Below are positions 2,101 to 16,239 of a DNA stretch of 64,000 bases, piece after piece. Each line of letters begins with the position of its first letter. Position 1 is the first letter of the stretch. The translations under genes were made by a program, and so were the position numbers. This DNA is from a virus. The stretch spans positions 34,692 through 98,691 of the IMG/VR virus record IMGVR_UViG_3300028048_000053. The stretch is one strand, 5' to 3'. Below the pieces are notes generated by a model, which was not told where the DNA came from, did no database searches, and was given only the letters and a program-made list of their open reading frames with translations.

Positions 2101-2171
2101 TATTACATAATCTCTTCTATGTGTAAAAAAACATAAATTAAACATATTCAATTCTAATTAAAAATCCTTCT

Positions 2172-2218
2172 TTGATTTTTTATAAAAAATATAATATAAT
2201 ATTTATAGAAAAGATAAA
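2172..2218 (+). promoter_or_regulatory. conserved phage promoter-like repeat (TTGATTTTTTATAAAAAATATAATATAATAT.TATAGAAAA)
   Basis: Member of a repeat found at least 16 times, always 15-40 nt upstream of an RBS and ATG. Confidence 0.6.
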
Positions 2219-2230
2219 GAGGTATTTTCT

Positions 2231-2422
2231 ATGTATATTTGTCCTATATGTAATCGACAATTTGACAATCCAGAGCAGATAGCAAAACATTCGCTGCCCT
2301 GTTGGAAAGAGCATAATCCTAACCACAAGTCCACACCTGCGCCCCGTAGCGAAGATATAACTGAACGAGAAGTTAGTGATGCTGCTCTTAATTTTTTCGC
2401 TTCTTTGAAGAATCGGGGTTAA
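2231..2422 (+). CDS. small CxxC zinc-finger protein
   Basis: ORF track 63 aa, promoter repeat plus RBS upstream. Confidence 0.55.
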   Translation: MYICPICNRQFDNPEQIAKHSLPCWKEHNPNHKSTPAPRSEDITEREVSDAALNFFASLKNRG

Positions 2423-2424
2423 GT

Positions 2425-2775
2425 ATGCAGGAAGTAATGCTTAAAACCCACCTCATTGTTACCGATGTTCATGAAGAGTATTTTGTGAAGTGGACTGGTA
2501 ATATTGCCAATGCGAAGCCTCTTTTTAAGAACGATATGCCCGTGTTTGTTATCATTGGATCTGAGGCTCGTATGGAGTTGAACACAATCAATATCAAACA
2601 GATTGAGGAGTGCGCCAAGCGCATGACTCACCCTCGTGGCAGACAAGCAGTTACCACAGATAAAGCGTTTATTTACATCAAAGAAGAGGACGGAAGTGAA
2701 AAACTCATCGGCAGCGTTACTCACAATCATGTGAAGCAATATCAGCAGATGTACGACCGTTTTGAACGAGTATAA
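2425..2775 (+). CDS. hypothetical protein
   Basis: ORF track 116 aa, ATG follows previous stop. Confidence 0.6.
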   Translation: MQEVMLKTHLIVTDVHEEYFVKWTGNIANAKPLFKNDMPVFVIIGSEARMELNTINIKQIEECAKRMTHPRGRQAVTTDKAFIYIKEEDGSEKLIGSVTHNHVKQYQQMYDRFERV

Positions 2776-2784
2776 AAATCTTCC

Positions 2785-2832
2785 CTTTGATTTTTTATAA
2801 AAAATATATTATAATATATATGTAAGATAAAG
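2785..2832 (+). promoter_or_regulatory. promoter-like repeat copy
   Basis: same consensus as 2172. Confidence 0.55.
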
Positions 2833-2858
2833 AAAGGGAAAGAAACCAAGATAGAAAG

Positions 2859-3107
2859 TTGAGAGAGGTGATTGTTATAAAAAATATTCTTAGTTATCAG
2901 TCTGGTACTCGTTTTACTGGCGCAGAAATCAAAGCGTGGGTAAAAGAGCAACTTGAAAATCACACTTCTCACGAGCATCAAGCTCATTATATGACTCGCT
3001 TTTCTAATGTGAAAGATGACCGTTTATACTTCATTAGTATCGAGCATCCCTATGTGTCTCCTTGGACTAAGAAGCAAGTGCGTCCAAAAGTCTATCGAGC
3101 TACATAA
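2859..3107 (+). CDS. hypothetical protein (start TTG 2859 or GTG 2868 uncertain)
   Basis: ORF track 82 aa, downstream of promoter repeat. Confidence 0.5.
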   Translation: MREVIVIKNILSYQSGTRFTGAEIKAWVKEQLENHTSHEHQAHYMTRFSNVKDDRLYFISIEHPYVSPWTKKQVRPKVYRAT

Positions 3108-3110
3108 AAA

Positions 3111-3158
3111 GATTTCCTTTTGATTTTTTATAAAAAATATAATATAATATTTATAGAA
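3111..3158 (+). promoter_or_regulatory. promoter-like repeat copy
   Basis: consensus repeat. Confidence 0.55.
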
Positions 3159-3176
3159 AAGATAAAGAAAGGGGAT

Positions 3177-3545
3177 ATGAATATGAGCTACTTTGATAGA
3201 GAAAAAAATCCTTATGGCATCAACAAAAATTCTCACTATTTCGCTCTGATGAATCCTATCTGCGGCTTCGGTTTCTTTGCCGATGCAGACAAGCATGACT
3301 GGGTGGAGTGCGAGATTGTTGAGGATCGCTACGAAGTCGATGAGGGTTATAAGGTGACTCTGAAGCCTCTGGACAGCAATCACGCTTCTCGGGACTTCTA
3401 TCAGTGCGACTTCATTAGCTTGATGAAAAGTGGTCATATCGTTGAAAAGACCAATGATTCACTTCATATTGAGCATGAAGAAATTTATATTCCTCTGACC
3501 AATACGGCTTATCTGGTTTGCAATGGTGATTATATCACAGACTGA
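3177..3545 (+). CDS. hypothetical protein
   Basis: ATG after AAAGGGGA RBS; the ORF track 5-prime extension overlaps the promoter. Confidence 0.6.
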   Translation: MNMSYFDREKNPYGINKNSHYFALMNPICGFGFFADADKHDWVECEIVEDRYEVDEGYKVTLKPLDSNHASRDFYQCDFISLMKSGHIVEKTNDSLHIEHEEIYIPLTNTAYLVCNGDYITD

Positions 3546-3561
3546 GCAAAATCCTCTGTTT

Positions 3562-3605
3562 TTGATTTTTTATAAAAAATATAATATAATATATATAGAA
3601 AATAA
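3562..3605 (+). promoter_or_regulatory. promoter-like repeat copy
   Basis: consensus repeat. Confidence 0.55.
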
Positions 3606-3623
3606 AGAAAGGGGAATTGAAAG

Positions 3624-3818
3624 ATGTTTTATGATTCTTTTTTATGTGAGCAACAAATTGATGAAATCATCCCCGAAGAATATGAAGATTGGCTGCGCTT
3701 CTGTGCCGGAGCCTACGAGGAAGCCGAATATGAGCTTCATGACCACTTCGAGGAGGATGAAGATGATTGCTTCGAGCCTGGCCGCCCTATTGTTTACATG
3801 TTTGACCTGAATCCCTAA
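3624..3818 (+). CDS. small acidic protein
   Basis: ORF track 64 aa, RBS AAAGGGGAA upstream. Confidence 0.55.
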   Translation: MFYDSFLCEQQIDEIIPEEYEDWLRFCAGAYEEAEYELHDHFEEDEDDCFEPGRPIVYMFDLNP

Positions 3819-3835
3819 GCAAAAAGAACTTCCAT

Positions 3836-3882
3836 TGATTTTTATAAAAAAATATTATATAATATATATGTAAGATAAAGAA
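3836..3882 (+). promoter_or_regulatory. promoter-like repeat copy facing an ORF-free structured region and the tRNA array
   Basis: consensus repeat; no credible ORF for 1.1 kb downstream. Confidence 0.5.
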
Positions 3883-4094
3883 AGGGAAAGAAACCAAGAT
3901 AGAAAGTTGGACTTGGCATTGACCATCATCCCTTCTCGTTCTTTAATATCGCTCCCTGTTAGTTATGCGCGAGGGACTTGGACAGCCGTAAAGGAAATCC
4001 ATCAAGTAAGTTGTAGCTTTTTCTAAAAAGAAATATCAGACTGCGTAATATCTTATTTGGTGGTTGGTATCGACACACGACGCGCGATTTATAT

Positions 4095-4173
4095 GGGGGA
4101 TGGGACTGCATAGAGTGGTCATCTGTTTTGCACACAGAAAATCAGACGGGGGCGGTACCCGTATCCTCCACCA
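4095..4173 (+). tRNA. tRNA-like element, anticodon TGC (Ala-like), non-canonical D and T loops, CCA encoded
   Basis: Acceptor GGGGGAT/ATCCTCC, anticodon stem TCTGT/ACAGA, loop TTTGCAC, T-stem ACGGG/CCCGT. The D-loop lacks GG and the T-loop is GGCGGTA. Confidence 0.35.
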
Positions 4174-4231
4174 AGAGCGCAAAAGGAGATTGATAGTATC
4201 CACTCGGTCTTAACGGCGCTATACAAATAGG

Positions 4232-4271
4232 CAAAACCAATTACTATCTGGGCAAAACCAATTACTATCTA
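4232..4271 (+). repeat. 20-nt direct repeat GGCAAAACCAATTACTATCT x2
   Basis: Exact tandem duplication in the ORF-free region. Confidence 0.7.
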
Positions 4272-4977
4272 TGCCATCTACTGGCTATCAACAGTAGTGA
4301 GGGTGTGATAGCATCCAAAAGCGAAGCGACGAATGAGCTGGTACTCTCCCAGCCCTAAGGGATATAAGTCGCTGGACACCTCGCCCATTGAGGAGGGAAG
4401 TGCTGGTAGAAACCCACAACACCAGACACCAGAACATAAGGGCATATGGAATGGTAACATTTGGGAATTCGGTGCTATTTTCGAAATAGCCCACCAGCGT
4501 GGCGTGCTGTTTAAATATCCGCCATTATGGCTACAAATCCTACCTCCACGTGGTGTAGCTGGACACTCTGCGAAAAGTTAGCAGACAGAGTGACTGACAG
4601 GATAGATAAGAAGATAATGGCTTGCTAACTTCCCATTATCGTAGAACCGGCAGGATACAACCTGTTCCACAACGGAATAAAAGTCCACGTGATGCATCTA
4701 AGGGGCGACTTAAAGCGTCGCCGTGAATAGGTTCTAATTATCGAAAAGTTATCTCCTTCTTCAAAAATGGAGTAATTGGAAGAACAAAATTTCCAGTAAT
4801 CAAAAGATGTGTGGCTGGCCAACCCAAGGCCCGTAAATATAGCCTTGGGGGCAGGAAGTCGAGCCGCGTGTCTGTCACACACGAGATAGTGGGAGCATTA
4901 CCCATCAGGGCTGCCAAGACGATAGCAAATAAGTCTATAAACAGATGTGCGGTTAGCTGACCTAAAGCTTCATATAT

Positions 4978-5063
4978 GCGGAGCTGGCGTAATTGGTAGC
5001 CGCGCTAGCCTTAGGAGCTAGTGAGCCCAGCTCGTGCGGGTTCGAGTCCCGCGCTCCGCACCA
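4978..5063 (+). tRNA. tRNA-Leu(TAG), type II, CCA encoded
   Basis: Acceptor GCGGAGC/GCTCCGC, loop CTTAGGA, long variable arm, T-arm GGGTTCGAGTCCC. Confidence 0.85.
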
Positions 5064-5252
5064 AAAAGGTTGATTGCGCCTTTAGCCAAAAGCAATCTAA
5101 GCCTGTAAAGACAGGCCGGTGGTATCTATACATCCGTTAAACTGGAAGGTTGGCTTGGGAGTGCGACATGTAACTCCATTCTAGCTCGCGAAGGGACGAG
5201 ATATGCGTGTCTGGACGCTAAAGAAACAAGGTTGGCAACCACCAGCTTTTAT

Positions 5253-5324
5253 GTGGCCGTCGTTTAAGAGGTAGGACAGCCCCGCGGTGAGGGGCGCGTA
5301 CGGGTTCGAGTCCCGCTGGCCGCA
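5253..5324 (+). tRNA. tRNA-like element with an aberrant anticodon loop (GCGGTGA, no U33)
   Basis: Acceptor GTGGCCG/TGGCCGC, D-stem GTTT/GGAC with GG in the loop, canonical T-arm ACGGGTTCGAGTCCCGC, no CCA. Confidence 0.3.
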
Positions 5325-5643
5325 AGATTAGATAACGGGTAGCAGCGCCCATAATACTATGAATAGATGATAGATAGTAAATAAAGAGCTGCGTTGATGA
5401 AGTGCTGGTTGTACGTTCTATGCCGAAACGTAGCCGTGGAATGGCCTTTTGGTTATAGGTTTAGCCTCGCTCCCGTGAAGGCGAGGGATGAAAACCTCCC
5501 AGATAGAATCGCTGTAAGAAGGATTCATGTTCAGGTTTTTGTACTTTTTTCACCGAAAAGGCGGTTGGATGAAAAAAGTACGGTTCAGTGAAGCCGCTGT
5601 AACCAGAAAGAAGAGGGCTGCAGACCTCTTAAGTGCGTTATAT

Positions 5644-5728
5644 ACTCGAATGGCGAAATTGGTAGACGCGCCTGCCTCAAAAGCAGGTGTCGAAAGACGT
5701 GTGGGTTCGAGTCCCACTTTGAGTACCA
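5644..5728 (+). tRNA. tRNA-Leu(CAA), type II, CCA encoded
   Basis: Acceptor ACTCGAA/TTTGAGT, anticodon stem CCTGC/GCAGG, loop CTCAAAA, long variable arm. Confidence 0.85.
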
Positions 5729-5865
5729 ATAGGAAATGCTTGTTGTGAAAGGCAACTCCTTCTGGCTCGACAGAAGAGAAATAATCGAGAAAGGTAGAGG
5801 ATAGCAGGAAAACAACCTGCGGCCGCAAGCATAGTTGAAACCTCACCTCCAACTGGCCATAAAAA

Positions 5866-5910
5866 TTATTTGAAAATTATAAAAAAATATTATATAATAT
5901 ATATAGAAAT
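5866..5910 (+). promoter_or_regulatory. promoter-like repeat copy
   Basis: consensus repeat; a 380-nt GC-rich ORF-free stretch follows before the HNH gene. Confidence 0.5.
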
Positions 5911-6288
5911 GGTGGTTAAAGACTATTACCTCCTCGTGGTGCCACTGGACACGCTTGATTCTATCTCTATAGAGCGTGACGAAAAATAGTCAGATAATAT
6001 TAGCTTGCCTCAAGAACGGGGCCCTCTTGGATGGTGAGATAGCCAAGGGGATACAACAGTAACTCGAAGGTACCAAAGGAATTCGGCTATAAAGTGCGTA
6101 GCGAGCCGTAGAAAAGCTAAAATTATCGAGGTTTGCGGTCAACCTAAAACCGCACTATCTGGCGCAGTAGTGGAACTGGCTAACACGCCGGCCTTTCGTT
6201 AGATTATTTCAAGAGTAGAAAATTTTTTGGTCATCGAAGTTCAATTATCGAAGTGCATTTTTTAAGAATAATGAAAGGAGTAGATGAT

Positions 6289-7017
6289 ATGTCTATTTTA
6301 AATAATTATTCAAACGAAGAATTTGCACGAATTGTATCTGAAAGTATTAATTATAGGGATTGCCTCTACGCTTTAGGATATAATTCATATTCAGGAGCGA
6401 CTATAACTTTGTTGAAATAGAGAATTTCAGATTTAAATCTTGACACTTCTCATTTTACCAGCAAAACACCTATTGAACGCTCGGAAGCTAATATTTTTAT
6501 AGAAAATTCAACCGCCGATCAAAAAACCTTGCGTAGATGGTATACAAAAGGCAATTACACCGAATATAAATGCTCTATATGCGGACAAGATCCTTTTTGG
6601 AATGGCAAAGAATTAACACTTATTCTAGACCATATCAACGGAAAACATACGGACGATAGACTAGAAAATCTTCGTTGGGTTTGTCCGAACTGTAATTATC
6701 AATTAGAAACAACTAATGGTAAAAACAAGCAACATAGAGAGCATAGTTTAAATTATTGTATTGATTGCGGTCAACCTATTTCTAAATCGGCAACAAGGTG
6801 TTTATCTTGCGCCAATAAGGCAAGAGCCTCTAAAGATGTTCCGTATGTATCTAGAGAAGAATTAAAACGCTTAATTAGGATCATGCCTTTTACTTAGATA
6901 GGTGAAAAATTTGGAGTTAGCGATAATGCGGTACGAAAATGGTGTGATAAATATTAGTTACCAAGAAAATCTTCTGAAATAAAAAAAATAACTAATGATG
7001 ACTGGAAAAAAATATGA
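6289..7017 (+). CDS. HNH homing endonuclease (reads through 3 in-frame TAG)
   Basis: WNGK...HINGK...NLRWVCPNC HNH motif; the frame continues through TAG at 6409, 6895 and 6955 to TGA 7015-7017. The C-terminus has a GVSDNAVRKWC helix-turn-helix-like tail. Confidence 0.75.
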
Positions 7018-7215
7018 GTGCAATTCTCATATCTAGCACCAAAGCCGGAGATTGGGGTTTCAAGCACCCCCTGCGTCACCACCTGCGGCGATAGTGCCGC
7101 AAACCGATAACACGGATTTGAGAAGTAAACTACCACCGGCATGGCGTCATGAACCATGATATGTGGCTTAGCGGAAATTCGGTATATAAAGAAGCGAAGT
7201 AACTTCTCTCTATAT

Positions 7216-7292
7216 GGCGCTTTCGTCTAATTGGACTAGGACGCCTCTCTCTCAAGGAGGTAATGTGAGATCGTTCCTCGCAAGCGTCACCA
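7216..7292 (+). tRNA. tRNA-Glu(CTC)-like, T-loop ATCGTTC (54/58 identities swapped), CCA encoded
   Basis: Acceptor GGCGCTT/AAGCGTC, anticodon stem CCTCT/GGAGG, loop CTCTCAA, T-stem GTGAG/CTCGC. The overlapping ORF-track ORFs are spurious. Confidence 0.45.
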
Positions 7293-7295
7293 CAG

Positions 7296-7325
7296 CGGCG
7301 AGCGCCGCAAGCGTTTTTATGACAG
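7296..7325 (+). terminator. rho-independent terminator (GCGGC GAGC GCCGC then T-run)
   Basis: GC hairpin with tetraloop followed by TTTTTAT directly after the tRNA-like element. Confidence 0.5.
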
Positions 7326-7401
7326 CAATAATACCAGCAGCCAATCACGCTGGAAAAACACTCGTTTTCCTTGTTTCGAGCATAAAAACAAGGATTCTTA
7401 A

Positions 7402-7474
7402 TGCGGGGAGAAACAGTTTTCACTCTGGCCCCATAAGCCAGACTCCGTGGGGGCAGCACCCACTCCCGCAACCA
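7402..7474 (+). tRNA. tRNA-like element with anticodon CAT, loop CCCATAA, minimal D-arm, CCA encoded
   Basis: Acceptor TGCGGGG/TCCCGCA, anticodon stem CTGGC/GCCAG, T-stem GTGGG/CCCAC with a non-canonical loop. Confidence 0.25.
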
Positions 7475-7839
7475 ACCAGGGCCGTGATTTCTAATTACTT
7501 TCAAATGCGCCCTGTTACAAATAAACCAAGAAAGTAATAGAACCTCAAAACGGGATCTTATTAGTTCTGCTCATCGGTTTGTCCTCCCTATTTACAAACT
7601 TTGGTCTAATAAGCTGAGGGAAGCCACCGTTTTTTTCAATACAAAAAGACTTTATTAGCAGGAGTCTTTTAGAAAACTTGTATGTGGGTATCTCCTTTCT
7701 TTGTATTTTGTGTGTTTTCTTTTTCACTTTCTTTTTTGTTTATACAAGTTGGATTTTTTTACCTGCTAATTCTTTTTTTGTGTATATTAAAGATTTTTTA
7801 ATCTTTTAATATAATATATTTGAAAGGTAGGAATTTCAA

Positions 7840-8127
7840 ATGAAGTTTTATAGCGAAAGTCTAAACAAGATGTTTGACTCGGCTGATGCGTGCGCAGAAG
7901 CAGAGAGCGCGCATGAAAAGGCTATGGCAGAAGCAGAGGCCAAGAAAAAGGCACTTGCGGATGAAAGAGCCAGTAGAGCCAAGGAAGTTGAGGAAGCTTA
8001 TAAGACTGCCGTTGAAGCCAAAAAGGTTTACAACGAAAAGCTTCAGGATTTCTTGAAGGATTATGGTTCATTCCATGCGACCTTTAAGAATGTTGATCCA
8101 TTCTTCAGCTTCCTTGATTGGTTCTAA
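7840..8127 (+). CDS. hypothetical Ala/Lys/Glu-rich protein
   Basis: ORF track 95 aa, RBS AAAGGTAGGAA upstream. Confidence 0.6.
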   Translation: MKFYSESLNKMFDSADACAEAESAHEKAMAEAEAKKKALADERASRAKEVEEAYKTAVEAKKVYNEKLQDFLKDYGSFHATFKNVDPFFSFLDWF

Positions 8128-8171
8128 CAAAAGCGGTTTCAGCTCCTTTTCCGCAAAAGGAGCTTTCATAT

Positions 8172-8264
8172 GGATGGGTGGCAGAGTTGGTTGAATGCGG
8201 CGCCCTGCTAAGGCGTTGACCCTGGTAACGGGGTCCGGAGGTTCGAATCCTCTCCCATCCGCCA
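8172..8264 (+). tRNA. tRNA-Ser(GCT), type II, CCA encoded
   Basis: Acceptor GGATGGG/CCCATCC, loop CTGCTAA, long variable arm, T-arm GGAGGTTCGAATCCTCT. Confidence 0.85.
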
Positions 8265-8335
8265 AAAGCCAAGACTCTTGCAGCAATATTTTTTACATAT
8301 TTTAGGCTATGTATGAACGAGTCTTGTTTTTATAT

Positions 8336-8424
8336 GCGCGGTGATTTCACCCGGCGGTGAACCTAGTCTTGAAAACTAGTGGAGTCAGGGATGGCTTGGG
8401 GGTCGGCACCTCCGCCGCGCGCCA
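8336..8424 (+). tRNA. tRNA-Ser(TGA)-like, type II, atypical T-loop GTCGGCA, CCA encoded
   Basis: Acceptor GCGCGGT/GCCGCGC, anticodon stem CTAGT/ACTAG, loop CTTGAAA, long variable arm. Confidence 0.4.
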
Positions 8425-8429
8425 AATAA

Positions 8430-8502
8430 GCCCGTGTGGCCAAGTGGATAAGGCACGAGCTTCCTAAGCCCGGATTCCTAGGTTCAAATCCTAGCACGGG
8501 TG
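8430..8502 (+). tRNA. tRNA-Arg(CCT), no CCA
   Basis: Acceptor GCCCGTG/CACGGGT, loop TTCCTAA, T-arm CTAGGTTCAAATCCTAG; one A.C mismatch in the anticodon stem. Confidence 0.7.
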
Positions 8503-8646
8503 CGGCAACAAGAGCAGACCTTCACGTGGTGTTGTTGTTTTTACTAATTGCTCAAAAAAAACTACGAATTTTTTTGGACGAAGTTCAAAAAGATGGTTCT
8601 AATAATTTTTATATGTAATAGAAGATAAAACTAGGAGGAATTATAT

Positions 8647-9330
8647 ATGAAAATTAAATTTGAACATACAGAATTTCCATATCATGGCGGCGCTCTAAAA
8701 GATGAATTAATTAAAATAAGAGGAAATAAATGTGAAGACTGCGGTTTAACAATATGGAAAAATTAGCCTATCCCTCTTGAAGCACATCATATTGATGGAG
8801 ATAGATGTAATAATACTCTTGAAAATTTAATACTTTTATGCCCTAACTGTCATACCTTAACTCCAAACTACGGAGCAAAAAATAGAAACAGAAGAGAATT
8901 TTCTGATGAAGAAATTATTAAATCTTTACAAACGCACAAATCAATTCGTCAAGCGTTGTTCGCATTAGGAATGTCTGATGCTGGCGCAAACTATGAAAGA
9001 GTAAGAACTTTAATAAATAATAATGCAGATAGAGAAATTTTAATTGATAATTCAATAGAAAAACGAATAAAATATTGTCCTGATTGTGGCAAAGTTATTT
9101 CACAATAGGCAACTCATTGTGCAGAATGCGCTAAAAAAGCATCTCGTGTTGTTGAAAGACCAGATAGAGAAACTTTAAAAGAAGAAGTTTATAATACTCC
9201 ATTTACCGAACTTGGAAAAAAGTATCATGTAAGTGATAAGAGTATTTAGAAATGGTGTGCTTATTATAAATTGCCTTCAAGAAGAAAAGATATAAAACAA
9301 TTTACAAAGGAAGAATGGATGGCGTTATAA
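8647..9330 (+). CDS. HNH homing endonuclease (reads through 3 in-frame TAG), paralog of 6289
   Basis: LEAHHIDGDRCNN..LLCPNCH motif; the frame is continuous from ATG 8647 to TAA 9328-9330 with TAG at 8764, 9106 and 9247. Confidence 0.75.
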
Positions 9331-9332
9331 AT

Positions 9333-9408
9333 GCGCCCTTAGGCTAATTGGATAAACCAAAGGCCTACGAAGCCTTTATTACCTGTTCAAGTCAGGTAGG
9401 GCGTACCA
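9333..9408 (+). tRNA. tRNA-Arg(ACG), CCA encoded
   Basis: Acceptor GCGCCCT/AGGGCGT, anticodon stem AAGGC/GCCTT, loop CTACGAA, T-arm ACCTGTTCAAGTCAGGT. Confidence 0.85.
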
Positions 9409-9507
9409 ACGGGGTTGTGGGAGTTTCCCCGCCGGATAAAACTCCAAGGGATCTACAAGAGTTAGGTTAAGCCCATAGAGGGGTGACGATGAAACACTAT
9501 TCCCCTC

Positions 9508-9637
9508 CTCTTTATATGGGGAACTAGGCAAATCGGTAAAGCCGCGTTATAGACGATGTCTAGTCCAAGACAGTGACAGCAATTTTTCCTTTGCATGTAG
9601 GAGCACGTGTTTGCTGGTTCGAGTCCACCGTTCCCCA
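9508..9637 (+). tRNA. tRNA-like element with a roughly 55-nt insertion between the D-arm and T-arm
   Basis: 5-prime GGGGAAC-TA-GGC..GCC D-arm at 9508 pairs with 3-prime GTTCCCC after a TTCGAGT T-arm at 9615-9637; the intervening sequence forms hairpins. Confidence 0.25.
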
Positions 9638-10290
9638 TCAGGGTTGTCCCGAATAATCCCTATCGTCAATTTAAAAGGACAATAGAATTGACACCCCCTA
9701 ACCAATATTTTTTCAATTCACAGTCGTCTGTAAATAACTTGCGACTGCAGAAGAACTCTTAGGGTTGTTCTCAACGAAACATAGTTTATTGGTATAAGAT
9801 TGAGCGTGGTCCCAACACGAAAAGTAGGGATACTGTGGATAGTGATTATTGATTTGATGCTGCGATTAGGGCAGTTTATTGTATACTAGAAATTACAGTC
9901 TTGAAGCCAGACGCACACTCCACCTCTTGTGCGGCCTAATAAATTTGGCGAATAGATTGGGATTGAGTATCCAAAAGAATATGTGATAGGCTGAGGAGAG
10001 GTTAATACCTTGCGGCGAGGCTCATGGGCAACTGTGGTTAGCGACATGGGGTGTAAGCTGAACATATATTACTTGAGGATGCTTAATTTTTTCTCTAATG
10101 TGGCCTGGCCGCAGTCAGACACCTCAATCGTCTCGCCAAAACAAAGTTGACTTTTCAAAATTTTTTTGTTATTATATAGATAAAGATAGAAAAAATCTAT
10201 CTAATTTATATTAGTAAAGGAGAAAACATATGGCTGATGATGCTCCTATATGGAAGATGGCTATGATTTTTTCAGCCATCTTCCTCTCTG

Positions 10291-10335
10291 ATTGATTTTT
10301 ATAAAAAATTATTATATAATAATTATAGAAAAATA
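10291..10335 (+). promoter_or_regulatory. promoter-like repeat copy upstream of the tRNA-Thr/Pro/Gln cluster
   Basis: consensus repeat. Confidence 0.5.
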
Positions 10336-10401
10336 AAGAAGGCGTTTTCAGCAAATATATAAACTTAGCTATTGGGTTATATATAGACGCCTTGTAGAAA
10401 T

Positions 10402-10476
10402 GCTGGTGTAGCTCAGCGGCAGAGCACGCGCCTTGTAAGCGCGGGGTCGAGATCTCGGAATTCTCCACCAGCCCCA
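10402..10476 (+). tRNA. tRNA-Thr(TGT), divergent T-arm, CCA encoded
   Basis: Acceptor GCTGGTG/CACCAGC, anticodon stem CGCGC/GCGCG, loop CTTGTAA; the T region GAGATCTCGGAATTCTC is non-canonical. Confidence 0.65.
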
Positions 10477-10720
10477 TATCACAGCCCTCTTAGCGTGTGT
10501 AAGACCAATAGGATAGAAGCTGGCCGGATATATCAGATTCCGTTTGTAATGCAGGGCCACGGGTGAAGCGGTTGTGATTTTTATACAGATAAAGACTCAT
10601 ACAGCAAATTTATAATATAAAATAAATGTCATTGGTTCGATTCCAATTTTAACAGCTTTTTGTTAAATAGCTCAATCTGGTAGAGCATTATTGTTTATTG
10701 AAAGAGTCTTGATTATATTT

Positions 10721-10796
10721 CGGGGTGTGGCTCAGTTGGTAGAGCGCGTGGTTTGGGACCATGAGGCCGTGAGTTCGAATCTCACCACTCCGACCA
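10721..10796 (+). tRNA. tRNA-Pro(TGG), CCA encoded
   Basis: Acceptor CGGGGTG/CACTCCG, loop TTTGGGA, T-arm GTGAGTTCGAATCTCAC. Confidence 0.85.
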
Positions 10797-10861
10797 CTTT
10801 TTAGACACACACAGCCAATTAAAAAGACTTAAAATCTTTCTATTTAGTGTCTAGTAGATTT

Positions 10862-10935
10862 AGGGGATTAGCGTAATGGTAGCGCGGTGGGCTTTGAACC
10901 CATACGTGGAAGTTCGATCCTTCCATCCCCTGCCA
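10862..10935 (+). tRNA. tRNA-Gln(TTG), CCA encoded
   Basis: Acceptor AGGGGAT/ATCCCCT, loop CTTTGAA, T-arm GGAAGTTCGATCCTTCC. Confidence 0.85.
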
Positions 10936-10938
10936 TAT

Positions 10939-11012
10939 ACCGACTTCGTATAGTGGTAGTACAACGGACTCTGACTCCGTTGGTGGTGGTTCAATTCCAT
11001 CAGCCGGTGCCA
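10939..11012 (+). tRNA. tRNA-Gln(CTG), CCA encoded
   Basis: Anticodon stem ACGGA/TCCGT, loop CTCTGAC, T-arm GGTGGTTCAATTCCATC; one A.C mismatch in the acceptor stem. Confidence 0.75.
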
Positions 11013-11223
11013 AGTTTAATAGAGGTATTCAGGTTGGAAATCTGATATAAATCCTCTAAATATATAACCGATAGGATGTAGGCTTAAAAGCAGCCATCAT
11101 TTAAAGAGTAGGTAATTTCCGCGGCGTTATCTTTTAGCGTAGCAGCACACTATCGACCCGGAGAAGGGGACAACGGGTATATAAATTTCCCTTTCTTATT
11201 TTATGTGAAAAAGGTGAATAAAA

Positions 11224-11571
11224 ATGTTTGATGCTCCGACACTTGATAAGTACGATTTTTATTTTTCCAAGGACAAGCAAAAGGTGATTGCGGTTTCTAC
11301 ATATGCTGGTCGTCCTGTTCGCGGGGTGGCTATTTGCAGTCCAGAAGATACCTACGATGTCTGGTCTGGTAAGGTGCTTGCGGCCGCCCGTTGTAACCAG
11401 AAGGTAGCTGAAAAGCGTCTAAAGCGAGCTGAAAAGAAGCTGCGCGAAGCTACGGCTGCATTTGCCCAGGCACAGAAGTATATGCTCGAGATGAATGACT
11501 ACTATGAAGATGCACGCCGCAGTAACTTCGATGCCAAAAAGCAGGTCAAAAATCTTTTGAATGAAATGTAA
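11224..11571 (+). CDS. hypothetical protein
   Basis: ORF track 115 aa; RBS AAAAAGGTGA. Confidence 0.6.
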   Translation: MFDAPTLDKYDFYFSKDKQKVIAVSTYAGRPVRGVAICSPEDTYDVWSGKVLAAARCNQKVAEKRLKRAEKKLREATAAFAQAQKYMLEMNDYYEDARRSNFDAKKQVKNLLNEM

Positions 11572-11597
11572 TCGTCAGGTAAAAGGAGGAAGTTAAT

Positions 11598-12395
11598 ATG
11601 AAAGATGCTCTTGGCGATCGCATGAAAGGTTTTTATGAAGATCGCTATCGTATCTATCTAACGAGACGAATGCCTGTTATTATCCGCGTTGATGGCAACG
11701 CTTTCCACACTTTTACACGCGGACTTGATAGACCGTTTGACGCAGATTTTATGAAAATTATGCAGAAAACTTGTCTATCTCTTTGCCAGAATATCCAAGG
11801 CTGCGTTGGTGGATATGTCCAGAGCGACGAGATTTCTCTCCTTTTGGTTGATTATCAGACCCTTGAATCTGATGCATGGTTCGATTATAACCTCCAGAAG
11901 ATTACTTCACTTGCGGCCGCCCGTGCCACGATGACTTTTAATGCGCTTGTTAGAGAATTGGTCAATAGATATATCCGTAAAGTAAGCAATGATCCTGACA
12001 TGGACGCAAGAAGATTAAACCTTTGGAGCGAAAAGCAGAATCGTGCTATGTTCGATGCTCGTGCCTTCAACATTCCCAAAGAAGAAGTATGCAACTACTT
12101 CATCTGGCGTCAAAAAGATGCCACTCGCAACAGTATTCAGGCCGCTGGCCAGGCACAATTCTCTCATAAAGAGCTTGAAGGTAAATCTCAGTCTGATATT
12201 CAGGAAATGCTGTTCCAGAAGGGGATTAATTGGAACAATTACACTATCCCCGAAAAGCGCGGCTCTTTTGTGCGAAGATATTTAGAAACTATTGGACAGG
12301 AAGATGGGACACTTACTGTGCGTCGTCCTTGGTGCATTGATGATGAAATGCCTATTCTCACCGAAGATAGAGGCTATATCGAAGAACTTATTTGA
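11598..12395 (+). CDS. Thg1-like protein (tRNA-His guanylyltransferase / 3-5 polymerase family)
   Basis: N-terminal RVDGNAFHTF...PFD motif typical of the Thg1/TLP family; 265 aa; RBS AAAGGAGG. Confidence 0.6.
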   Translation: MKDALGDRMKGFYEDRYRIYLTRRMPVIIRVDGNAFHTFTRGLDRPFDADFMKIMQKTCLSLCQNIQGCVGGYVQSDEISLLLVDYQTLESDAWFDYNLQKITSLAAARATMTFNALVRELVNRYIRKVSNDPDMDARRLNLWSEKQNRAMFDARAFNIPKEEVCNYFIWRQKDATRNSIQAAGQAQFSHKELEGKSQSDIQEMLFQKGINWNNYTIPEKRGSFVRRYLETIGQEDGTLTVRRPWCIDDEMPILTEDRGYIEELI

Positions 12396-12430
12396 AAAAT
12401 TATAAAAAATATTATATAATATATATAGAA
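12393..12430 (+). promoter_or_regulatory. promoter-like repeat copy
   Basis: consensus repeat. Confidence 0.5.
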
Positions 12431-12451
12431 AATGAGAAAGGAAATATTGAT

Positions 12452-12709
12452 ATGAAATATGTCTGTTTCTCTGGTGGAAATGGTTACTGCGGCTGCGACT
12501 ATGAAGATTATGTCGCCATTGCAGACGATACTCCGGAAAGTTGGATAGAACAAATGTCCGTGGAGCGAGCATACGAAAACGCTGAGTCTTATGCTCACGT
12601 TGCTTTGGACGATGATTTCACAGCGGAAGAAGAGCAAGAATATTATGACAACCTCGATTTTGATTGGCACTATGTAACCGAAGAAATCTATTTAGAAAAT
12701 ACAAACTAA
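12452..12709 (+). CDS. small acidic Cys-rich protein
   Basis: ATG 12452 after GAAAGGAAA RBS; the ORF-track extension covers the promoter. Confidence 0.55.
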   Translation: MKYVCFSGGNGYCGCDYEDYVAIADDTPESWIEQMSVERAYENAESYAHVALDDDFTAEEEQEYYDNLDFDWHYVTEEIYLENTN

Positions 12710-12755
12710 TTTGAAAATTTTAAAAAAATATTATATAATATATATGTAAGATAAA
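12710..12755 (+). promoter_or_regulatory. promoter-like repeat copy upstream of the suppressor tRNA cluster
   Basis: consensus repeat. Confidence 0.5.
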
Positions 12756-12868
12756 GAAAGACACAAACAGCAATTTTCAAGGATTTAATTTCAAGGATTT
12801 AGTTTCTGATTAAAAAATTACCTAATAGTGTCTTGTTTGGATAATGGGGGTTGGAGTAACGGTTATGT

Positions 12869-12962
12869 GGCGGGTTCGTTTAACGGTAAGACAGCTGACT
12901 CTAAATCAGTCCATAGCCCCCTGAAGGAGCTTATGAAGGTTCGAATCCTTCACCCGCTGCCA
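12869..12962 (+). tRNA. amber suppressor tRNA, anticodon CTA, type II (long variable arm), discriminator G, CCA encoded
   Basis: Acceptor GGCGGGT/ACCCGCT, D-stem GTTT/AGAC, anticodon stem GCTGA/TCAGT, loop CTCTAAA (U33 and A37 present), 24-nt variable arm, T-arm GAAGGTTCGAATCCTTC. Confidence 0.75.
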
Positions 12963-13017: not shown

Positions 13018-13600
13018 GCGGGTATGGTGGAATGGTAGACACGGCGGACTTTTGTCCCAAGTACAAGGACATGAGCACTAGGATAGGAAACTTCCTAAGT
13101 GAATGTTGGCTAATTCGGCGAAAGTCTCAAGCAGATAACGCCGAGCTAAATTGAATATAGGTGCAACAAAGCTGAAATACAGAGAGGTCGCCTGTAGGTC
13201 TATGGCAGTTGAATAAGCAACTCCGCTTGTATGTATTAAGATTGAGCAGTAGTTGTTAAATGGAGTTAGATGAACAGCCTATACTCATAAATGTGTAGAG
13301 ACTATATACCAACTACCTAAGTCAAACGAGTTAGTAAGGAAACGGCACATTGAGTGGGAGCGTTTGATATGGTAAAGACATAGTCCAGACTACAACTTAA
13401 TAATAAAGCAGGTGCTACGAAGCCATTGACGTAAGTCCTTGTGGAGACTATCGTGGAACTCGAAAGAGCGGAAAGAGAAGCTGTAGTAAATGGAGTTAGA
13501 TGAACAGCCTGCTTTTATGTATTAAGGCTATGGTGACATAGAGTAGTAAGAAAATCCTCTGAGCTGAGCTCGTGCCGGTTCGAGTCCGGCTACCCGCACC
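13018..13600 (+). tRNA. tRNA-Leu(TAA) interrupted by a group I intron in the anticodon loop (exons 13018-13051 and 13550-13600)
   Basis: 5-prime half GCGGGTA-TG-GTG..CAC-G-GCGGA-CTT, 3-prime half AAAA-TCCTC-TGAGCTGAGCTCG-GCCGGTTCGAGTCCGGC-TACCCGC-A-CCA. The spliced loop is CTTAAAA. Confidence 0.75.
13052..13549 (+). ncRNA. group I intron (498 nt, no ORF) within tRNA-Leu(TAA)
   Basis: Inserted after U34 as in the classical tRNA-Leu(UAA) intron; exon ends in U, intron ends in G. R-like element TAGAGACTATA near 13296, S-like ACATAGTCC near 13378, internal 24-nt direct repeat. Confidence 0.7.
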
Positions 13601-13758
13601 ACGTAAGAGCCATACAGCAAAATTTTATTTACAAGATATTTTTTATAGAATTTTGATAAGGATAGTCCAGAGATAGGCTCTTGTAATTAAAAAATCTCTG
13701 GCTGTAAAAGGGAAGTTAGAAATTTGAATAATATTTCTAATTTCCCTATTTTTTATTT

Positions 13759-14112: not shown

Positions 14113-14186
14113 CGGTATCTTATAGGAGCCTTCTCGTGGCGATACTGTTTTAACTAATCCTATAATAATAGAGAGGAGCTGTTTTT

Positions 14187-14837
14187 ATGGCATACATCTA
14201 TTTAATCACAAACAAAACTAATTAGAAACAATATGTAGGAAAAACCCAAAATAGTATAGAATAGCGGTGGAAAGAACACTGTCGAGATTATAAAAAGGAG
14301 CATAACGAAAAACGTCCATTGTATGCGGCTATGCGTAAGTATGGTATTGAAAATTTTGAAATTTCATTAATTGAAGAAGTTTCTCCTGAGTAGAACCTTG
14401 AAGAGCGTGAAATTTACTGGATAGACTATTATCAAACTTATAACAAGGGCTATAATGCTACTATTGGAGGAGACGGTAAATCTTTTTTGCCATATAAAAC
14501 TATACTAGAGTTATGGAATCAAGGACTAAATTGTAAACAAATTGGAGAACAGCTACATTGCGATGCCGGGTGGATTGGTGTGATTTTAAAAAGTCATAAT
14601 GTCTCCCCCCAAGAAATTTAGAATAAGTCCTTTGTTGATAAGAAAATTCGAGTTTGTCAAATAGATAAAAAAACAAATTAGATTATAGCAATTTTTCCAT
14701 CCTATAGAAGTGCCGCTCAAGCAATGCTTGATAAAAAATTAACAAATTGTAAAGTTGGTACTGGAGCTGCTCATATAGGAGAAGTTTGCTCAAACAAAAG
14801 AAAGACCTTTGCAGGCTTTAAATGGAAAAAGGCTTAA
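14187..14837 (+). CDS. GIY-YIG homing endonuclease (reads through 5 in-frame TAG)
   Basis: AYIYLITNKTN-TAG-KQYVGKT...RWKEH GIY-YIG motif plus a C-terminal NUMOD-like region; continuous frame from ATG 14187 to TAA 14835-14837. Confidence 0.75.
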
Positions 14838-15409: not shown

Positions 15410-15589
15410 ATGACTCTTCAAGAAGTGTGTAAAATTTTGGGAAAGAGTGAAAAAACTCTAATTTATAGTTTTAAAAGAACCTAGTTAAACCTTGCTAAAA
15501 AAGGTATCATCCTTCTAAAAACTGGTGTAGGCAAAAATGCCGACTATCAAATAACCTATGAGGAGAATGATACAAATGAAAAAGGATAA
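15410..15589 (+). CDS. small HTH-like protein, leader of a mobile endonuclease cassette (one in-frame TAG at codon 25)
   Basis: MTLQEVCKILGKSEKTLIYSFKRT-TAG-LNLAKKGII; its paralog at 35500 has a TAG at the identical codon. Confidence 0.5.
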
Positions 15590-16235
15590 TACAATATTCA
15601 AAGTATATATTCATAAATTGAAAATAGATGGAAGAGTCTATGTTGGATAGACGAGTTCATCTATGGAAGAGCGCGCTGGCAGTAACGGATATAGATATAA
15701 ACATTGCACCAAATTTTGGCACGCGATTTAGAAATATGGGTGGGAGTCTTTTGAGCATATATTAATTAAGGATGGATTAACTTTAGACGAAGCAAATCAG
15801 TTAGAAGATGAACTGATATTAAAATATAATAGCATTGAAAATGGATTTAATATTAATCGCGGTGGACTAAATCATCTTTGGACAGATGAATAGCGAAAAA
15901 TAATGTCCGAAAGAAATATGGGAGAAAAAAATCCCAATTACGGGAAACCGCGTTCCGAAGAGACCAAGAAAAAAATAGGAGCTGCAAATGCAGTTGCTCA
16001 ACTGGGAAAGCATCACTCTGAAGAAACCAAAAAGAAAATGAGCAAATCTCATCGTAAGCAAGAACCTATTTTATGTGTCGAAACGGGAAATATTTATAAC
16101 GATGCGATAGAAGCCGCAGAATCCATTGGTAAAAAAGCTTCTGCAGCGAATCATATTAGAGAAGTTTGCGATGGTAAGAGATTGTCGGCTTATTCATATA
16201 CATGGAAATATCTTGACAAAGATAAAGGAGAATAA
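15576..16235 (+). CDS. GIY-YIG homing endonuclease (3 in-frame TAG, one at the YVG-Q-T motif position)
   Basis: VYIHKL..GRVYVG-TAG-TS ... AI-TAG-KYGWESFEH; C-terminal NUMOD-like repeats; ends TAA 16233-16235. Confidence 0.7.
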
Positions 16236-16239
16236 AAAA

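Follow-up and report, generated by a model that had tools for sequence, protein, structure and literature searches.

Predicted transfer RNAs with altered elbows and tRNA-like RNAs in the tRNA array of a large AT-rich phage

The virus record IMGVR_UViG_3300028048_000053 contains an array of transfer RNA (tRNA) genes in which several predicted tRNAs depart from the usual sequence of the T-loop/D-loop elbow. We analysed 64,000 nucleotides (nt) of this record (positions 34,692 to 98,691), referred to as the window; coordinates are those of the window unless a contig name precedes them. The window has a GC content of 38%, many of its long open reading frames (ORFs) stay open only if TAG is read as sense, and it carries an amber-suppressor tRNA(CUA) at 12869–12962. 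It is the tRNA array of a large AT-rich phage with TAG as a sense codon, and every tRNA gene between 340 and 14113 lies on the plus strand. Within the region of interest, ORF-free stretches of 45–55% GC alternate with coding stretches of 27–34% GC. A preliminary description of the sequence had placed six cloverleaf elements with unusual loops in these ORF-free islands, here called (a) to (f), and all six are present in the sequence and by folding.

No relative of the window at the DNA level was found among the INPHARED phage records. The relatives used for comparison, designated by L numbers, are IMG/VR and metagenome contigs, some of them from the rumen according to their record names, and five to eight are close. 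They share with the window the gene order Ala, Asp, Leu(UAG), (b), Leu(CAA), Glu(UUC), Glu(CUC), Met, an ORF of 95 amino acids, Ser genes, Arg genes, (f) and Thr. Each of (a), (c), (d) and (e) fills the slot of an ordinary tRNA in this order, and the same holds for two further genes, tRNA-Asp(GUC) at 4841–4916 and tRNA-Thr(UGU) at 10402–10476.

The elements differ in how readily they are detected. With default settings ARAGORN found (b) and (c); relaxed thresholds added (a) and (e), allowing introns added (f), and (d) was never reported. The Rfam tRNA model scored (c) at 45.4 bits and (b) at 29.3 bits, both at or above its gathering threshold (29 bits), while the Rfam model of selenocysteine tRNA (tRNA-Sec) gave (e) 43.5 bits. 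A covariance model trained only on 66 tRNAs of the relatives, and run without filters, scored (c) at 53.3, (b) at 42.3, Asp(GUC) at 29.9, (d) at 20.3 (expectation value, E, 4e-4) and (a) at 16.1 bits (E 6e-3), all of them at E ≤ 6e-3. The same clade model gave Thr(UGU) 54.5 bits and (e) 10.7 bits, matched (f) in the T arm only, and had no match better than E = 1 on the minus strand.

As a control for chance, we scanned for acceptor, D, anticodon and T stems followed by NCCA, blind to the sequence of the T-loop. Over 16 kilobases (kb), the scan returned 17 matches on the plus strand and one on the minus strand; the 6.2-kb region of the islands had eight matches, compared with 0.16 per shuffle. 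Scores no better than those of shuffled sequence were obtained only for (f) as a whole, and not for (a) to (e). The scan also revealed Asp(GUC) and the odd T-loop of Thr(UGU). Thus the initial list of candidates was real but incomplete, having missed these two genes and a split tRNA-Glu(UUC) described below. Its remark that spurious ORFs cover all the elements holds for (a), (c), (d) and (f), which overlap ORFs of at least 50 amino acids, but not for (b) and (e). Standard finders under-count phage tRNAs: of eight odd elements (the six flagged ones, Asp and Thr), three are invisible to Rfam and four, (d) included, are missed by ARAGORN at default settings.

The stems of (a), (b), (c) and (d) reach 19–21 of the 21 pairs of a 7/5 cloverleaf. 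The canonical combination of T-loop U54-U55-C56-R57-A58 and D-loop G18G19 is complete in (b) and (f) and incomplete in (a), (c), (d) and (e), the D-loop GG being absent from (a) and (d). A conserved anticodon flanked by U33 and a purine at 37 shows the opposite distribution: it is found in (a), (c), (e) and the orthologues of (d), (d) itself having C33, and is lacking in (b) and (f). Hallmarks of pseudogenes, namely stem mismatches and loss of the anticodon or of identity elements, were not found.

Element (a) (4095–4173, plus strand) folds as a 7/5 tRNA-Ala(UGC) with an encoded CCA (3' ACCA), an acceptor of seven base pairs (bp) with G3.U70, the anticodon loop UUUGCAC, a D-loop without GG (GCAUAGAGU) and the T-loop GGCGGUA. 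In an alignment of six sequences of the Ala family, all 126 cells (one pair in one sequence) were paired, six of the 21 pairs carried double changes, and sliding the pairing register left at most 56% of cells paired. G3.U70 is invariant in the family. Four Ala orthologues have the canonical T-loop UUCRAUU together with the D-loop GG; the T-loop reads GGCGGUA in the window, AUCGUAA in L083 and is canonical elsewhere. Between (a) and L089, differences fall on four of the seven T-loop positions versus nine of 69 positions elsewhere (p = 0.014). The T arm and acceptor of (a), ACGGG-GGCGGUA-CCCGU...CCUCCACCA, match the consensus CCGGG-GGCgGUA-CCCGG...CUCCACCA of the model for the tRNA-like domain of alpha-proteobacterial two-piece transfer-messenger RNA (tmRNA; 17.8 bits), and both are alanine acceptors with a reduced D-loop. 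However, (a) has a full D stem, a normal UGC anticodon arm and no mRNA-like domain, and ARAGORN found no tmRNA.

Element (c) (7216–7292, plus strand) is a tRNA-Glu(CUC) with the anticodon loop CUCUCAA, the T-loop AUCGUUC (A54/U58) and an encoded CCA. Across five Glu(CUC) sequences, 95 of 95 cells were paired, with double changes in 11 of 19 pairs; the T-loop is AUCGUAC in L005 and canonical in L081, L083 and L097. The terminator that had been noted after (c) was seen as a terminator-like hairpin (7295–7308) with a U run, together spanning 7295–7318 on the plus strand.

Element (d) (7402–7474, plus strand) has the features of a tRNA-Met(CAU) with an initiator-like acceptor end, UGCGGGG...UCCCGCA-ACCA. 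Its anticodon loop is CCCAUAA, its D arm is short with a 4-nt loop, and its T-loop is GGCAGCA. It lies in the array slot of the Met(CAU) genes of L081, L082, L083, L096 and L097. The unusual D region AAACAGUU is common to (d), L082 and L096, and the T-loop of the latter two is also non-canonical (AGCAUCC); compared with these two, the acceptor, anticodon and T stems of (d) are perfect and the differences are compensated changes. The ends UGCGGGG...CCCGCA-ACCA resemble those of the bacterial initiator tRNA (tRNA-fMet), and CAU is present. Bacterial tRNA-fMet has three G:C pairs at the base of the anticodon stem; pairs 29–31 of this stem in (d) are G-C, G-C and C-G. The C1xA72 mismatch of tRNA-fMet occurs in L082 and L096, whereas (d) has a paired U1-A72.

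Element (e) (8336–8424, plus strand) had been called Ser(TGA)-like, which is right as to type but undersells it, since it belongs to a published class, the (8/4) tRNA-Ser. It has an 8-bp acceptor, a 4-bp T stem, a 6-bp D stem with the loop CGGC, a variable arm of 18–19 nt, the anticodon loop CUUGAAA, the T-loop GUCGGCA and G73-CCA. Compared with its orthologue at L081:11674-11763 (66% identity), 23 of 23 pairs are kept in the 8/4 fold, eight of them with double changes, and the 6-bp D stem, CGGC loop, 18–19-nt variable arm and G73-CCA are common to both. The eighth acceptor pair is G:C in (e) and U:A in L081; a 7/5 reading creates a U.C mismatch at 49-65. A reading of (e) as tRNA-Sec (RF01852) was rejected, as the anticodon UGA reads the serine codon UCA and the score of 43.5 bits is below 47.

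A genome-wide pattern search with the T arm of (e) returned 102 loci. An 8/4 fold was obtained for 52 of these, from bacterial genomes; they combine a CGGC-looped D stem of 6 bp with a long variable arm, G73 and NGA anticodons. Among the sources named in the records are Oscillospiraceae and Clostridia of the rumen, Nocardia and Xanthobacteraceae. Positions 54 and 58 covary in these genes, being A/A in 45, G/G in six and mixed in one (counted by eye from the list). The (8/4) genes lie mostly within dense tRNA arrays, and 48 of 256 further CCA-ending tRNAs at the same loci have the odd loops of the window, exact copies of AUCGUUC and AGCAUUA included. The T arm GGGG-RUCGRCA-CCUC is common to (e) and the 52 examples. 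As far as the class is set out in the parts of Mukai et al. (2017; PMC5389517) that concern it, (e) agrees with it in the 8-bp acceptor, 4-bp T stem, 6-bp D stem with tetraloop, long variable arm, G73 and serine anticodon, and we found no essential difference. Hence (e) is a new member of the (8/4) tRNA-Ser/allo-tRNA class, and its odd T-loop is a class hallmark. Those parts of the paper place the class in bacteriophages and bovine rumen Clostridia and demonstrate serylation and translational use for other members. The 'polycistrons of irregular tRNAs' in PMC5389517 are those of soil Acidobacteria, and its passages on them do not describe 7/5 tRNAs with A54/U58 or G54/G58 loops.

The two genes missed at first are of the same kind. 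The tRNA-Asp(GUC) (4841–4916, plus strand), recovered by the T-loop-blind scan and by ARAGORN with -ps90, has the T-loop AGCAUUA and an encoded CCA. It occupies the array slot of the canonical Asp genes of L083, L097 and L005, with double changes in 13 of 21 pairs. The tRNA-Thr(UGU) (10402–10476, plus strand; Rfam 49.1 bits) has the T-loop CUCGGAA and a U53.U61 mismatch; the T-loop of its L081 orthologue is canonical. Separately, the Thr(UGU) genes at L082:11029-11112, L096:2847-2930 and L005:7857-7942 have a variable arm of 12–14 nt, which is unusual for tRNA-Thr.

U54, pseudouridine-55, A58 and G18/G19 are regarded as universal in cytoplasmic tRNAs, and they serve as handles for TrmA/TrmFO, TruB, RNase P, the ribosomal L1 stalk and T-box RNAs. 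Nevertheless, non-canonical T-loops occurred in 19 of 133 distinct CCA-ending tRNAs of the clade, mostly as A54/U58 or G54/G58. The variants fall into a few types: A54/U58 (AUCGUNN, AGCAUNN), G54/G58 (GKCRGYA) and U54 with G55. All of them retain C56 and R57, and nearly all retain G53-C61; of the six odd decoder tRNAs, five have G53-C61. The state of the T-loop flips between orthologues; Gln(CUG), for example, is canonical in the window and has GUCRGCA in L001 and L003. Loss of U55 accompanies loss of the D-loop GG (Fisher p = 2e-5), and this joint loss is a covariation between tertiary partners. The earlier proposals that the 54/58 A/U swap is a covariation and that both elbow partners change together were thus borne out statistically. 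About one in seven tRNA genes of the phage clade has replaced elbow nucleotides, and the share is similar in the arrays of many bacterial phyla that hold (8/4) tRNA-Ser. The replacements form a small recurrent covarying set (A54/U58, R54/R58, and G55 with loss of the D-loop GG) in genes that otherwise evolve as working tRNAs, and they offer natural test cases for the elbow contacts needed in translation.

Partial precedents exist for these loops. U54 has been called universally conserved with the exception of A54-A58 in eukaryotic initiator tRNA (PMC7912444). That tRNA is functional without U54, its T-loop being closed by a purine-purine 54-58 Hoogsteen pair (PMC7912444) comparable to G54/G58 and A54/A58 here, but it is a single tRNA species of another domain of life, whereas many elongator species are affected here. 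For the A54/U58 swap, no such precedent was found in the literature searched. Pyrrolysine tRNA (tRNA-Pyl) and type II mitochondrial tRNAs, which lack G18G19 and T-psi-C, are working tRNAs in which both elbow partners are altered together, as in (a) and (d) (PMC7609411). They belong to dedicated or organellar systems with co-evolved partners, while the tRNAs of the window need the standard machinery of a bacterial host. Most of the elements are of kinds already glimpsed in phages and rumen bacteria.

The preliminary description had offered functional atypical tRNAs, mimics and decaying copies as readings of the six elements. The first applies to (a), (c), (d) and (e), because they and their orthologues stand in conserved order, share anticodons and identity elements, and differ in the stems by compensatory changes; no decoder family shows a change of anticodon. 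The second applies to (b) and (f), and the third to none of them, the stems being intact. Decay following duplication, or following a host supply that made the genes dispensable, would explain why U54, U55, A58, G18 and G19 are lost, why (d) has C33 and a deformed D arm, why (f) ends in UCA in place of CCA in the window, and why Rfam scores are low. Covariation largely refutes it. Each element has 19–21 of 21 pairs intact, with many compensatory double changes relative to its orthologues, a handful of T-loop solutions turns up repeatedly, both in tRNAs that are not orthologous and in unrelated arrays of bacteria, and odd loops are common to diverged orthologues (Glu(CUC) of the window and L005, Met of the window and L082, Ser of the window and L081). 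We regard decay as very improbable.

The two elements that do not look like decoders are embedded in larger conserved structures. Element (b) (5252–5325, plus strand) lies in island B (5064–5643, plus strand), a conserved non-coding RNA some 580 nt long that separates Leu(UAG) from Leu(CAA). Blocks of this island are 100% identical to L003/L081, the island is also present in L083 and L097, and its blocks are conserved above the flanking tRNAs. For its 3' part, the 320 nt that follow (b), a consensus fold has 61 pairs, nine of them with double changes, and a closing long-range helix. Island B matched no Rfam family. The structured RNAs on either side of (b), at 5064–5250 and 5326–5643, likewise exceed the neighbouring tRNAs in conservation and have no Rfam match.

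Element (b) itself has canonical D and T loops and no CCA. The preliminary description was right that its anticodon loop, GCGGUGA, lacks U33 (it has C33), but its acceptor and T arm are not perfect, with U3.G70 in the former and an A49.C65 mismatch in the latter. Its homologues keep the D-loop, T-loop and acceptor, with covariation at pair 7-66 and in the T stem. None of them has CCA, and their 'anticodon' loops of 7–11 nt on 5–8-bp stems differ: GCGGUGA in the window, CUGAAUC in L081, GAGGAGA and CAUUUGGAAAU in the two tandem copies of L083, and CUAUAAAAC in L097. Lacking both a conserved anticodon loop and a CCA, (b) is a tRNA mimic and not a decoder. As a CCA-less tRNA-like handle in the 580-nt RNA, it would most likely direct RNase P/Z-type cuts that release the flanking RNAs. 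The mascRNA of MALAT1 and the tRNA-miRNA (microRNA) units of murine herpesvirus 68 (MHV68) are comparable, being non-decoding tRNA-shaped modules in longer non-coding RNAs, placed for release of their neighbours by RNase P/Z; they are, however, eukaryotic or herpesviral, and the processing proposed for (b) is suggested by its position alone.

Element (f) (9517–9640, plus strand) is a tRNA-shaped RNA with an acceptor, a D arm with GG and a canonical T arm. It had been described as three arms separated by an insert of about 55 nt. The arms do surround a long insert, but the anticodon arm is missing, and the coordinates shift to about 9517–9640. In place of the anticodon arm stands a long interrupted hairpin, in which a bulged stem of 7 bp leads through an internal loop to a hairpin of 5 bp. 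L082 is without a second, small hairpin. The 3' end reads AUCA in the window and ACCA in relatives. Copies in L001/L083, L003/L081 and L004/L082 are 91–95% identical, compared with 70–80% for the true tRNAs of these phages. In a distant homologue (L251:789-921), the frame and three short motifs are retained but the insert differs, and an exact pattern search for homologues returned the same four contigs only. A strongly conserved frame that lacks an anticodon arm marks (f) as a mimic and not a decoder. A tRNA with a short intron was rejected, since no consistent 5-bp anticodon stem with a 7-nt loop was found, the hairpin read by ARAGORN as the anticodon arm is absent from L082, and the anticodon called by ARAGORN varies among orthologues. 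Complementarity of (f) to other parts of the window was at chance level for 9-mers. Downstream, a non-coding block of about 450 nt (9641–10100) has 72–85% identity in L001, L003 and L004, with long invariant runs and no Rfam match.

An RNA that shares a stem module with (f) lies nearby. At 10592–10718 on the plus strand, a YrlA-like RNA (Y-RNA-like and permuted tRNA-like) scored 45.1 bits with the Rfam YrlA model, short of the gathering score (69); a search of 201 nt gave E 2.6e-9. The motif ACAGCAAWWTT has four copies in the window, where 0.36 would be expected; all lie inside the array, and one copy is the 5' stem strand of the YrlA-like RNA. Like YrlA (RF02553), (f) combines a tRNA-like D/T/acceptor frame with a long stem, and the 3' strand of its arm (AAGAC-N4-ACAGCAAUUUU) shares with the YrlA-like RNA of the window the 21-nt module AAGAC-N4-ACAGCAAWUUU. 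In YrlA, by contrast, the long stem holds the 5' and 3' ends and the acceptor is loop-closed, whereas (f) has an open acceptor ending in NCCA and a closed long stem; (f) also had no Rfam match. From its sequence, (f) looks like a circular permutation of a Y-RNA-like tRNA mimic. A tRNA frame with a Y-RNA-like stem module would most likely be a protein-binding mimic, functionally related to its YrlA-like neighbour, and the ACAGCAAWWTT module may be a common protein-binding or processing site. In a wider form, AAGAxxC-AWACAGCAAWWUU paired to a downstream GxxUCUU, the module is seen in the YrlA-like RNA, in two hairpins (12758–12835 and 13605–13700) and at 9566–9586. No Ro/Rsr (TROVE) gene was found among the window ORFs scanned, and a DUF2828/DUF7788 vWA protein was dropped as a candidate homologue, as it had neither detectable similarity in a PDB sequence search nor support in the literature.

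Could all odd elements be non-translational in the same way, either drawing off tRNA-targeting toxins or modification enzymes in the manner of a decoy or sponge, or punctuating the processing of spacer RNAs? Elements (b) and (f) clearly act so, the array is rich in structured RNAs other than tRNAs, the YrlA-like one among them, the scores of (a) and (d) with tRNA models are low, and irregular tRNAs that are charged yet unused in translation are reported in a part of Mukai et al. (PMC5389517). Such a role for every element is nonetheless improbable. Anticodons and synthetase identity elements are strictly conserved though the stems have turned over, which would be needless for a decoy; the array has no Ala, Asp, Glu(CUC), Thr or Ser(UCN) genes besides the odd copies; and orthologues with normal loops occupy the same slots in relatives.

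Taken together, we consider it probable that the array holds six decoder tRNAs with a re-solved elbow, namely (a), (c), (d), (e), Asp(GUC) and Thr(UGU), and two non-decoding mimics, (b) and (f). Polycistronic transcripts, in which tRNAs alternate with structured spacer RNAs, would be driven by sigma-70-type phage promoters. One of these, TTGATT-17-TATAAT, lies upstream of (a) (3835–3863, plus strand) and is a member of a 50-nt AT-rich promoter repeat (TTTGATTTTTTATAAAAAATATAATATAATATATATAGAAAA) with nine copies across 2171–12759, including those at 5870–5898 and 10292–10320; the copies precede small ORFs and operons of tRNAs or non-coding RNAs. RNase P would release the decoder tRNAs at a conserved U-rich (UAUAU) leader, their CCA ends being genome-encoded, and host synthetases would charge them through G3.U70 (Ala), the long variable arm with G73 (Ser) and A73/CAU with the fMet-type acceptor end (Met). 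In the elbow, U54-A58 is replaced by A54/U58 or by a purine-purine G54/G58, and U55 loss is matched by G18/G19 loss. Because C56, R57 and mostly G53-C61 are kept and the partners are lost together, the T-loop/D-loop fold appears re-solved and not destroyed. Judging by their sequences, the remodelled tRNAs would be unable to carry m5U54, and some of them pseudouridine-55.

Several points weigh against this interpretation. With the Rfam tRNA model, neither (a) nor (d) nor (f) was matched at E ≤ 10, not even when only about 100 nt were searched. The odd allele of (a) is confined to one lineage (the window and L081, 99% identical). Element (d) has C33, an abnormal D arm and U1-A72, and lies after a terminator-like hairpin with no recognisable promoter. 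The diversity of (f) is too low for any covariation test of its structure. Loss of U54 and pseudouridine-55 may impair contacts with the ribosome, EF-Tu or RNase P, and some copies may be poor or non-translational. Codon usage was uninformative and gives no specific support for a decoding need. Decoding, maturation and charging of the odd tRNAs are predictions from sequence.

Why the elbows changed is a matter of inference. An earlier suggestion of evasion of anticodon nucleases does not fit, for the anticodon loops of (a), (c) and (e) are ordinary and it is the T/D elbow that has changed. The altered elbows may persist because phage replacement tRNAs thereby escape host readers of the T-psi-C loop, such as T-loop nucleases or modification enzymes; we put this forward tentatively and regard it as doubtful. 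A toxin that cuts the T-loop does exist, namely CdiA-CT of Burkholderia E479 (PMC9086364). Phage tRNAs are known to evade tRNA-targeting defences (PMC10264068; PARIS and retron studies), in that arrays replace host tRNAs cleaved in infection and mutations block recognition. The documented escapes, however, alter the anticodon loop or stem (PMC10264068), whereas here the elbow is changed and the anticodon loops are mostly ordinary, and a link between elbow and defence would be hypothetical.

The idea would fit a set of RNA-repair-type genes encoded in the window: an RNA ligase (39029–40291; PF09414, 6e-21), an AAA_33 P-loop kinase, three metallophosphoesterases, a Thg1-like enzyme, a weak match to an RlaP-like nucleotidyltransferase, an MVP-like protein with vault shoulder and repeat domains, Band 7, PhoH-PIN and the DUF2828/DUF7788 vWA protein. 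The set lies at 11598–12395, 16042–17355, 30750–33254, 34419–35231, 36393–37337, 39029–40291, 40296–41264, 41622–42386, 42512–43096, 42999–43631 and 44395–45774. This RNA-repair toolkit adjoining the array fits a phage defending its own tRNA supply, and together with the elbows it points to a possible battleground between phage and tRNA-directed host defence. Weighing against an evasion motive, which is pure inference, we know of no T-loop-directed defence in the host of this phage.

The elbow changes could instead be neutral in functional tRNAs, if brief action at high copy relaxes the constraint on the T-loop and drift or copying by recombination does the rest, with no evasion. In line with this, the T-loop state flips in both directions between close orthologues, no host defence has been identified, and comparable variants are found across many phyla, in arrays rich in GC as well as in arrays rich in AT. 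A free drift is harder to square with the few recurrent types, which keep C56, R57, mostly G53-C61 and a pairable 54/58, with the joint change of position 55 and the D-loop GG, and with the concentration of changes in the loop. The restricted, covarying variants argue for a constraint on the fold, without proving an adaptive benefit thereby. We hold neutrality to be a real possibility, though short of probable.

The array also contains interrupted tRNA genes. The split tRNA-Glu(UUC) (6161–7081, plus strand), found by ARAGORN with introns allowed, carries an 844-nt insert (6198–7041) between nt 36 and 37, where intact orthologues have the loop CUUUCAA or CUUUCAC. The insert holds an ORF with weak HNH Pfam matches (E ~3e-3). 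Its other parts comprise only about 90 and 25 nt, which leave no room for a ribozyme, and it ends in C; a group I intron, with a core of about 200 nt and a 3'-terminal G, was rejected on these grounds. The first 7 nt of the insert pair with 7 nt near its 3' end, as GUUAGAU/AUCUAGC in the window and, by compensatory changes, GUUUCAU/AUGAAAC in L097. The 3' strand is preceded by a 5-bp hairpin with a 7-nt loop (UGCAAUU or UUCAAGU) and followed by ACC(A), so that the window has a T-arm mimic, AUGAG-UGCAAUU-CUCAU; the insert ends are predicted to form an acceptor/T-arm minihelix. A homologous insert with a GIY-YIG ORF lies in the Gly(UCC) slot of L097 (L097:3871-4799), and a third interrupts Glu(UUC) of L238 (~2790–2860, minus orientation). 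An AT-rich pattern search for further endonuclease-gene inserts gave 41 matches, of which that in L238 alone was real, and a protein search with the GIY-YIG ORF returned free-standing copies only.

Other inserts occur at the same site in relatives. Inserts of about 450 nt, nearly all of it a PD-(D/E)XK (PDDEXK_5) ORF, separate nt 36 and 37 of tRNA-Thr(UGU) and Ser(GCU) genes (L083:13314-13850, L081:10336-10870, L098:307-845); the last three nt are complementary to the anticodon and extend a long helix. Ser(GCU) of the window (8172–8264) is the uninterrupted allele. Upstream of the part corresponding to the start of the window, tRNA-Ile(UAU) of relatives (loop CUU|AUAA; L081:3875-4032, L083:3984-4141, L097:1821-1979) has a complete 81-nt tRNA-like unit nested in its anticodon loop, with its own GCCA end in L081. 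A group I intron is present in tRNA-Leu(UAA) of the window (13018–13601; 499 nt), scoring 46.1 bits at 13042–13408, just below the gathering score of Rfam; the versions in L085 and L088 measure 800–820 nt. Among the islands and inserts scanned with the Intron_gpI model, this intron was the only match, islands B and E and the L083 insert giving none.

The tRNA-shaped structures of the ribozyme-less inserts could serve to direct splicing, in which case the phage would splice tRNAs by proteins alone; we think this speculative and rather unlikely. Cuts of RNase P/Z type, or of RNase III type for the helix form, would leave nicks with 3'-OH and 5'-P in the anticodon loop, and the phage set of RNA ligase, kinase and phosphatase could seal them. 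Under such a splicing scheme, (b) and (f) would count as related tRNA frames standing on their own, and the altered elbows as one aspect of a broader variety of tRNA shapes arising in mobile tRNA arrays. If spliced, the ribozyme-less endonuclease inserts would be a new kind of bacterial tRNA intron. An archaeal host with bulge-helix-bulge introns was ruled out by the sigma-70 promoter, the type II tRNA-Tyr, the fMet-type acceptor end and the encoded CCA.

Rfam scans over 15 kb, supplemented by targeted scans of islands B and E, returned only tRNAs, the group I intron in Leu(UAA), the YrlA-like match and one match to a ribosomal RNA (rRNA) fragment. Apart from that intron, the scans did not support the GC-rich islands as ROOL, GOLLD, RNase P RNA, tmRNA or group I/II introns, and sensitive self-BLAST did not find them to be repeats of one another. 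Conserved non-coding spacers lie at 5905–6160, 7085–7215 and 4389–4613. The leader after the promoter at 5870 has about 70% identity to L005 and L097, the stretch before Glu(CUC) has 80% identity to L097, and 4389–4613 is 91% identical to L082:6276-6500.

Free-standing HNH and GIY-YIG endonuclease genes lie between tRNA genes at 8629–9330, 14169–14837 and 15555–16235; these HNH ORFs and the GIY-YIG ORF inside the L097 insert have a common C-terminal zinc-ribbon/helix-turn-helix domain. With its variable arm of 24 nt and its G73, the tRNA(CUA) at 12869–12962 shows serine-like identity features; its 5' half is similar to the Lys(UUU) gene, and the tRNA(CUA) genes of relatives are of the short type I. 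In-frame TAG is confined to a subset of genes, for example with 3–10 TAG codons per ORF at 44–47 kb and 55–61 kb. Finally, 11074–11122, just upstream of an ORF at 11224, matches positions 1096–1145 of bacterial large-subunit rRNA (31.6 bits, E 1.8e-6), which we take to be the L11/GTPase-associated-centre region of 23S rRNA.

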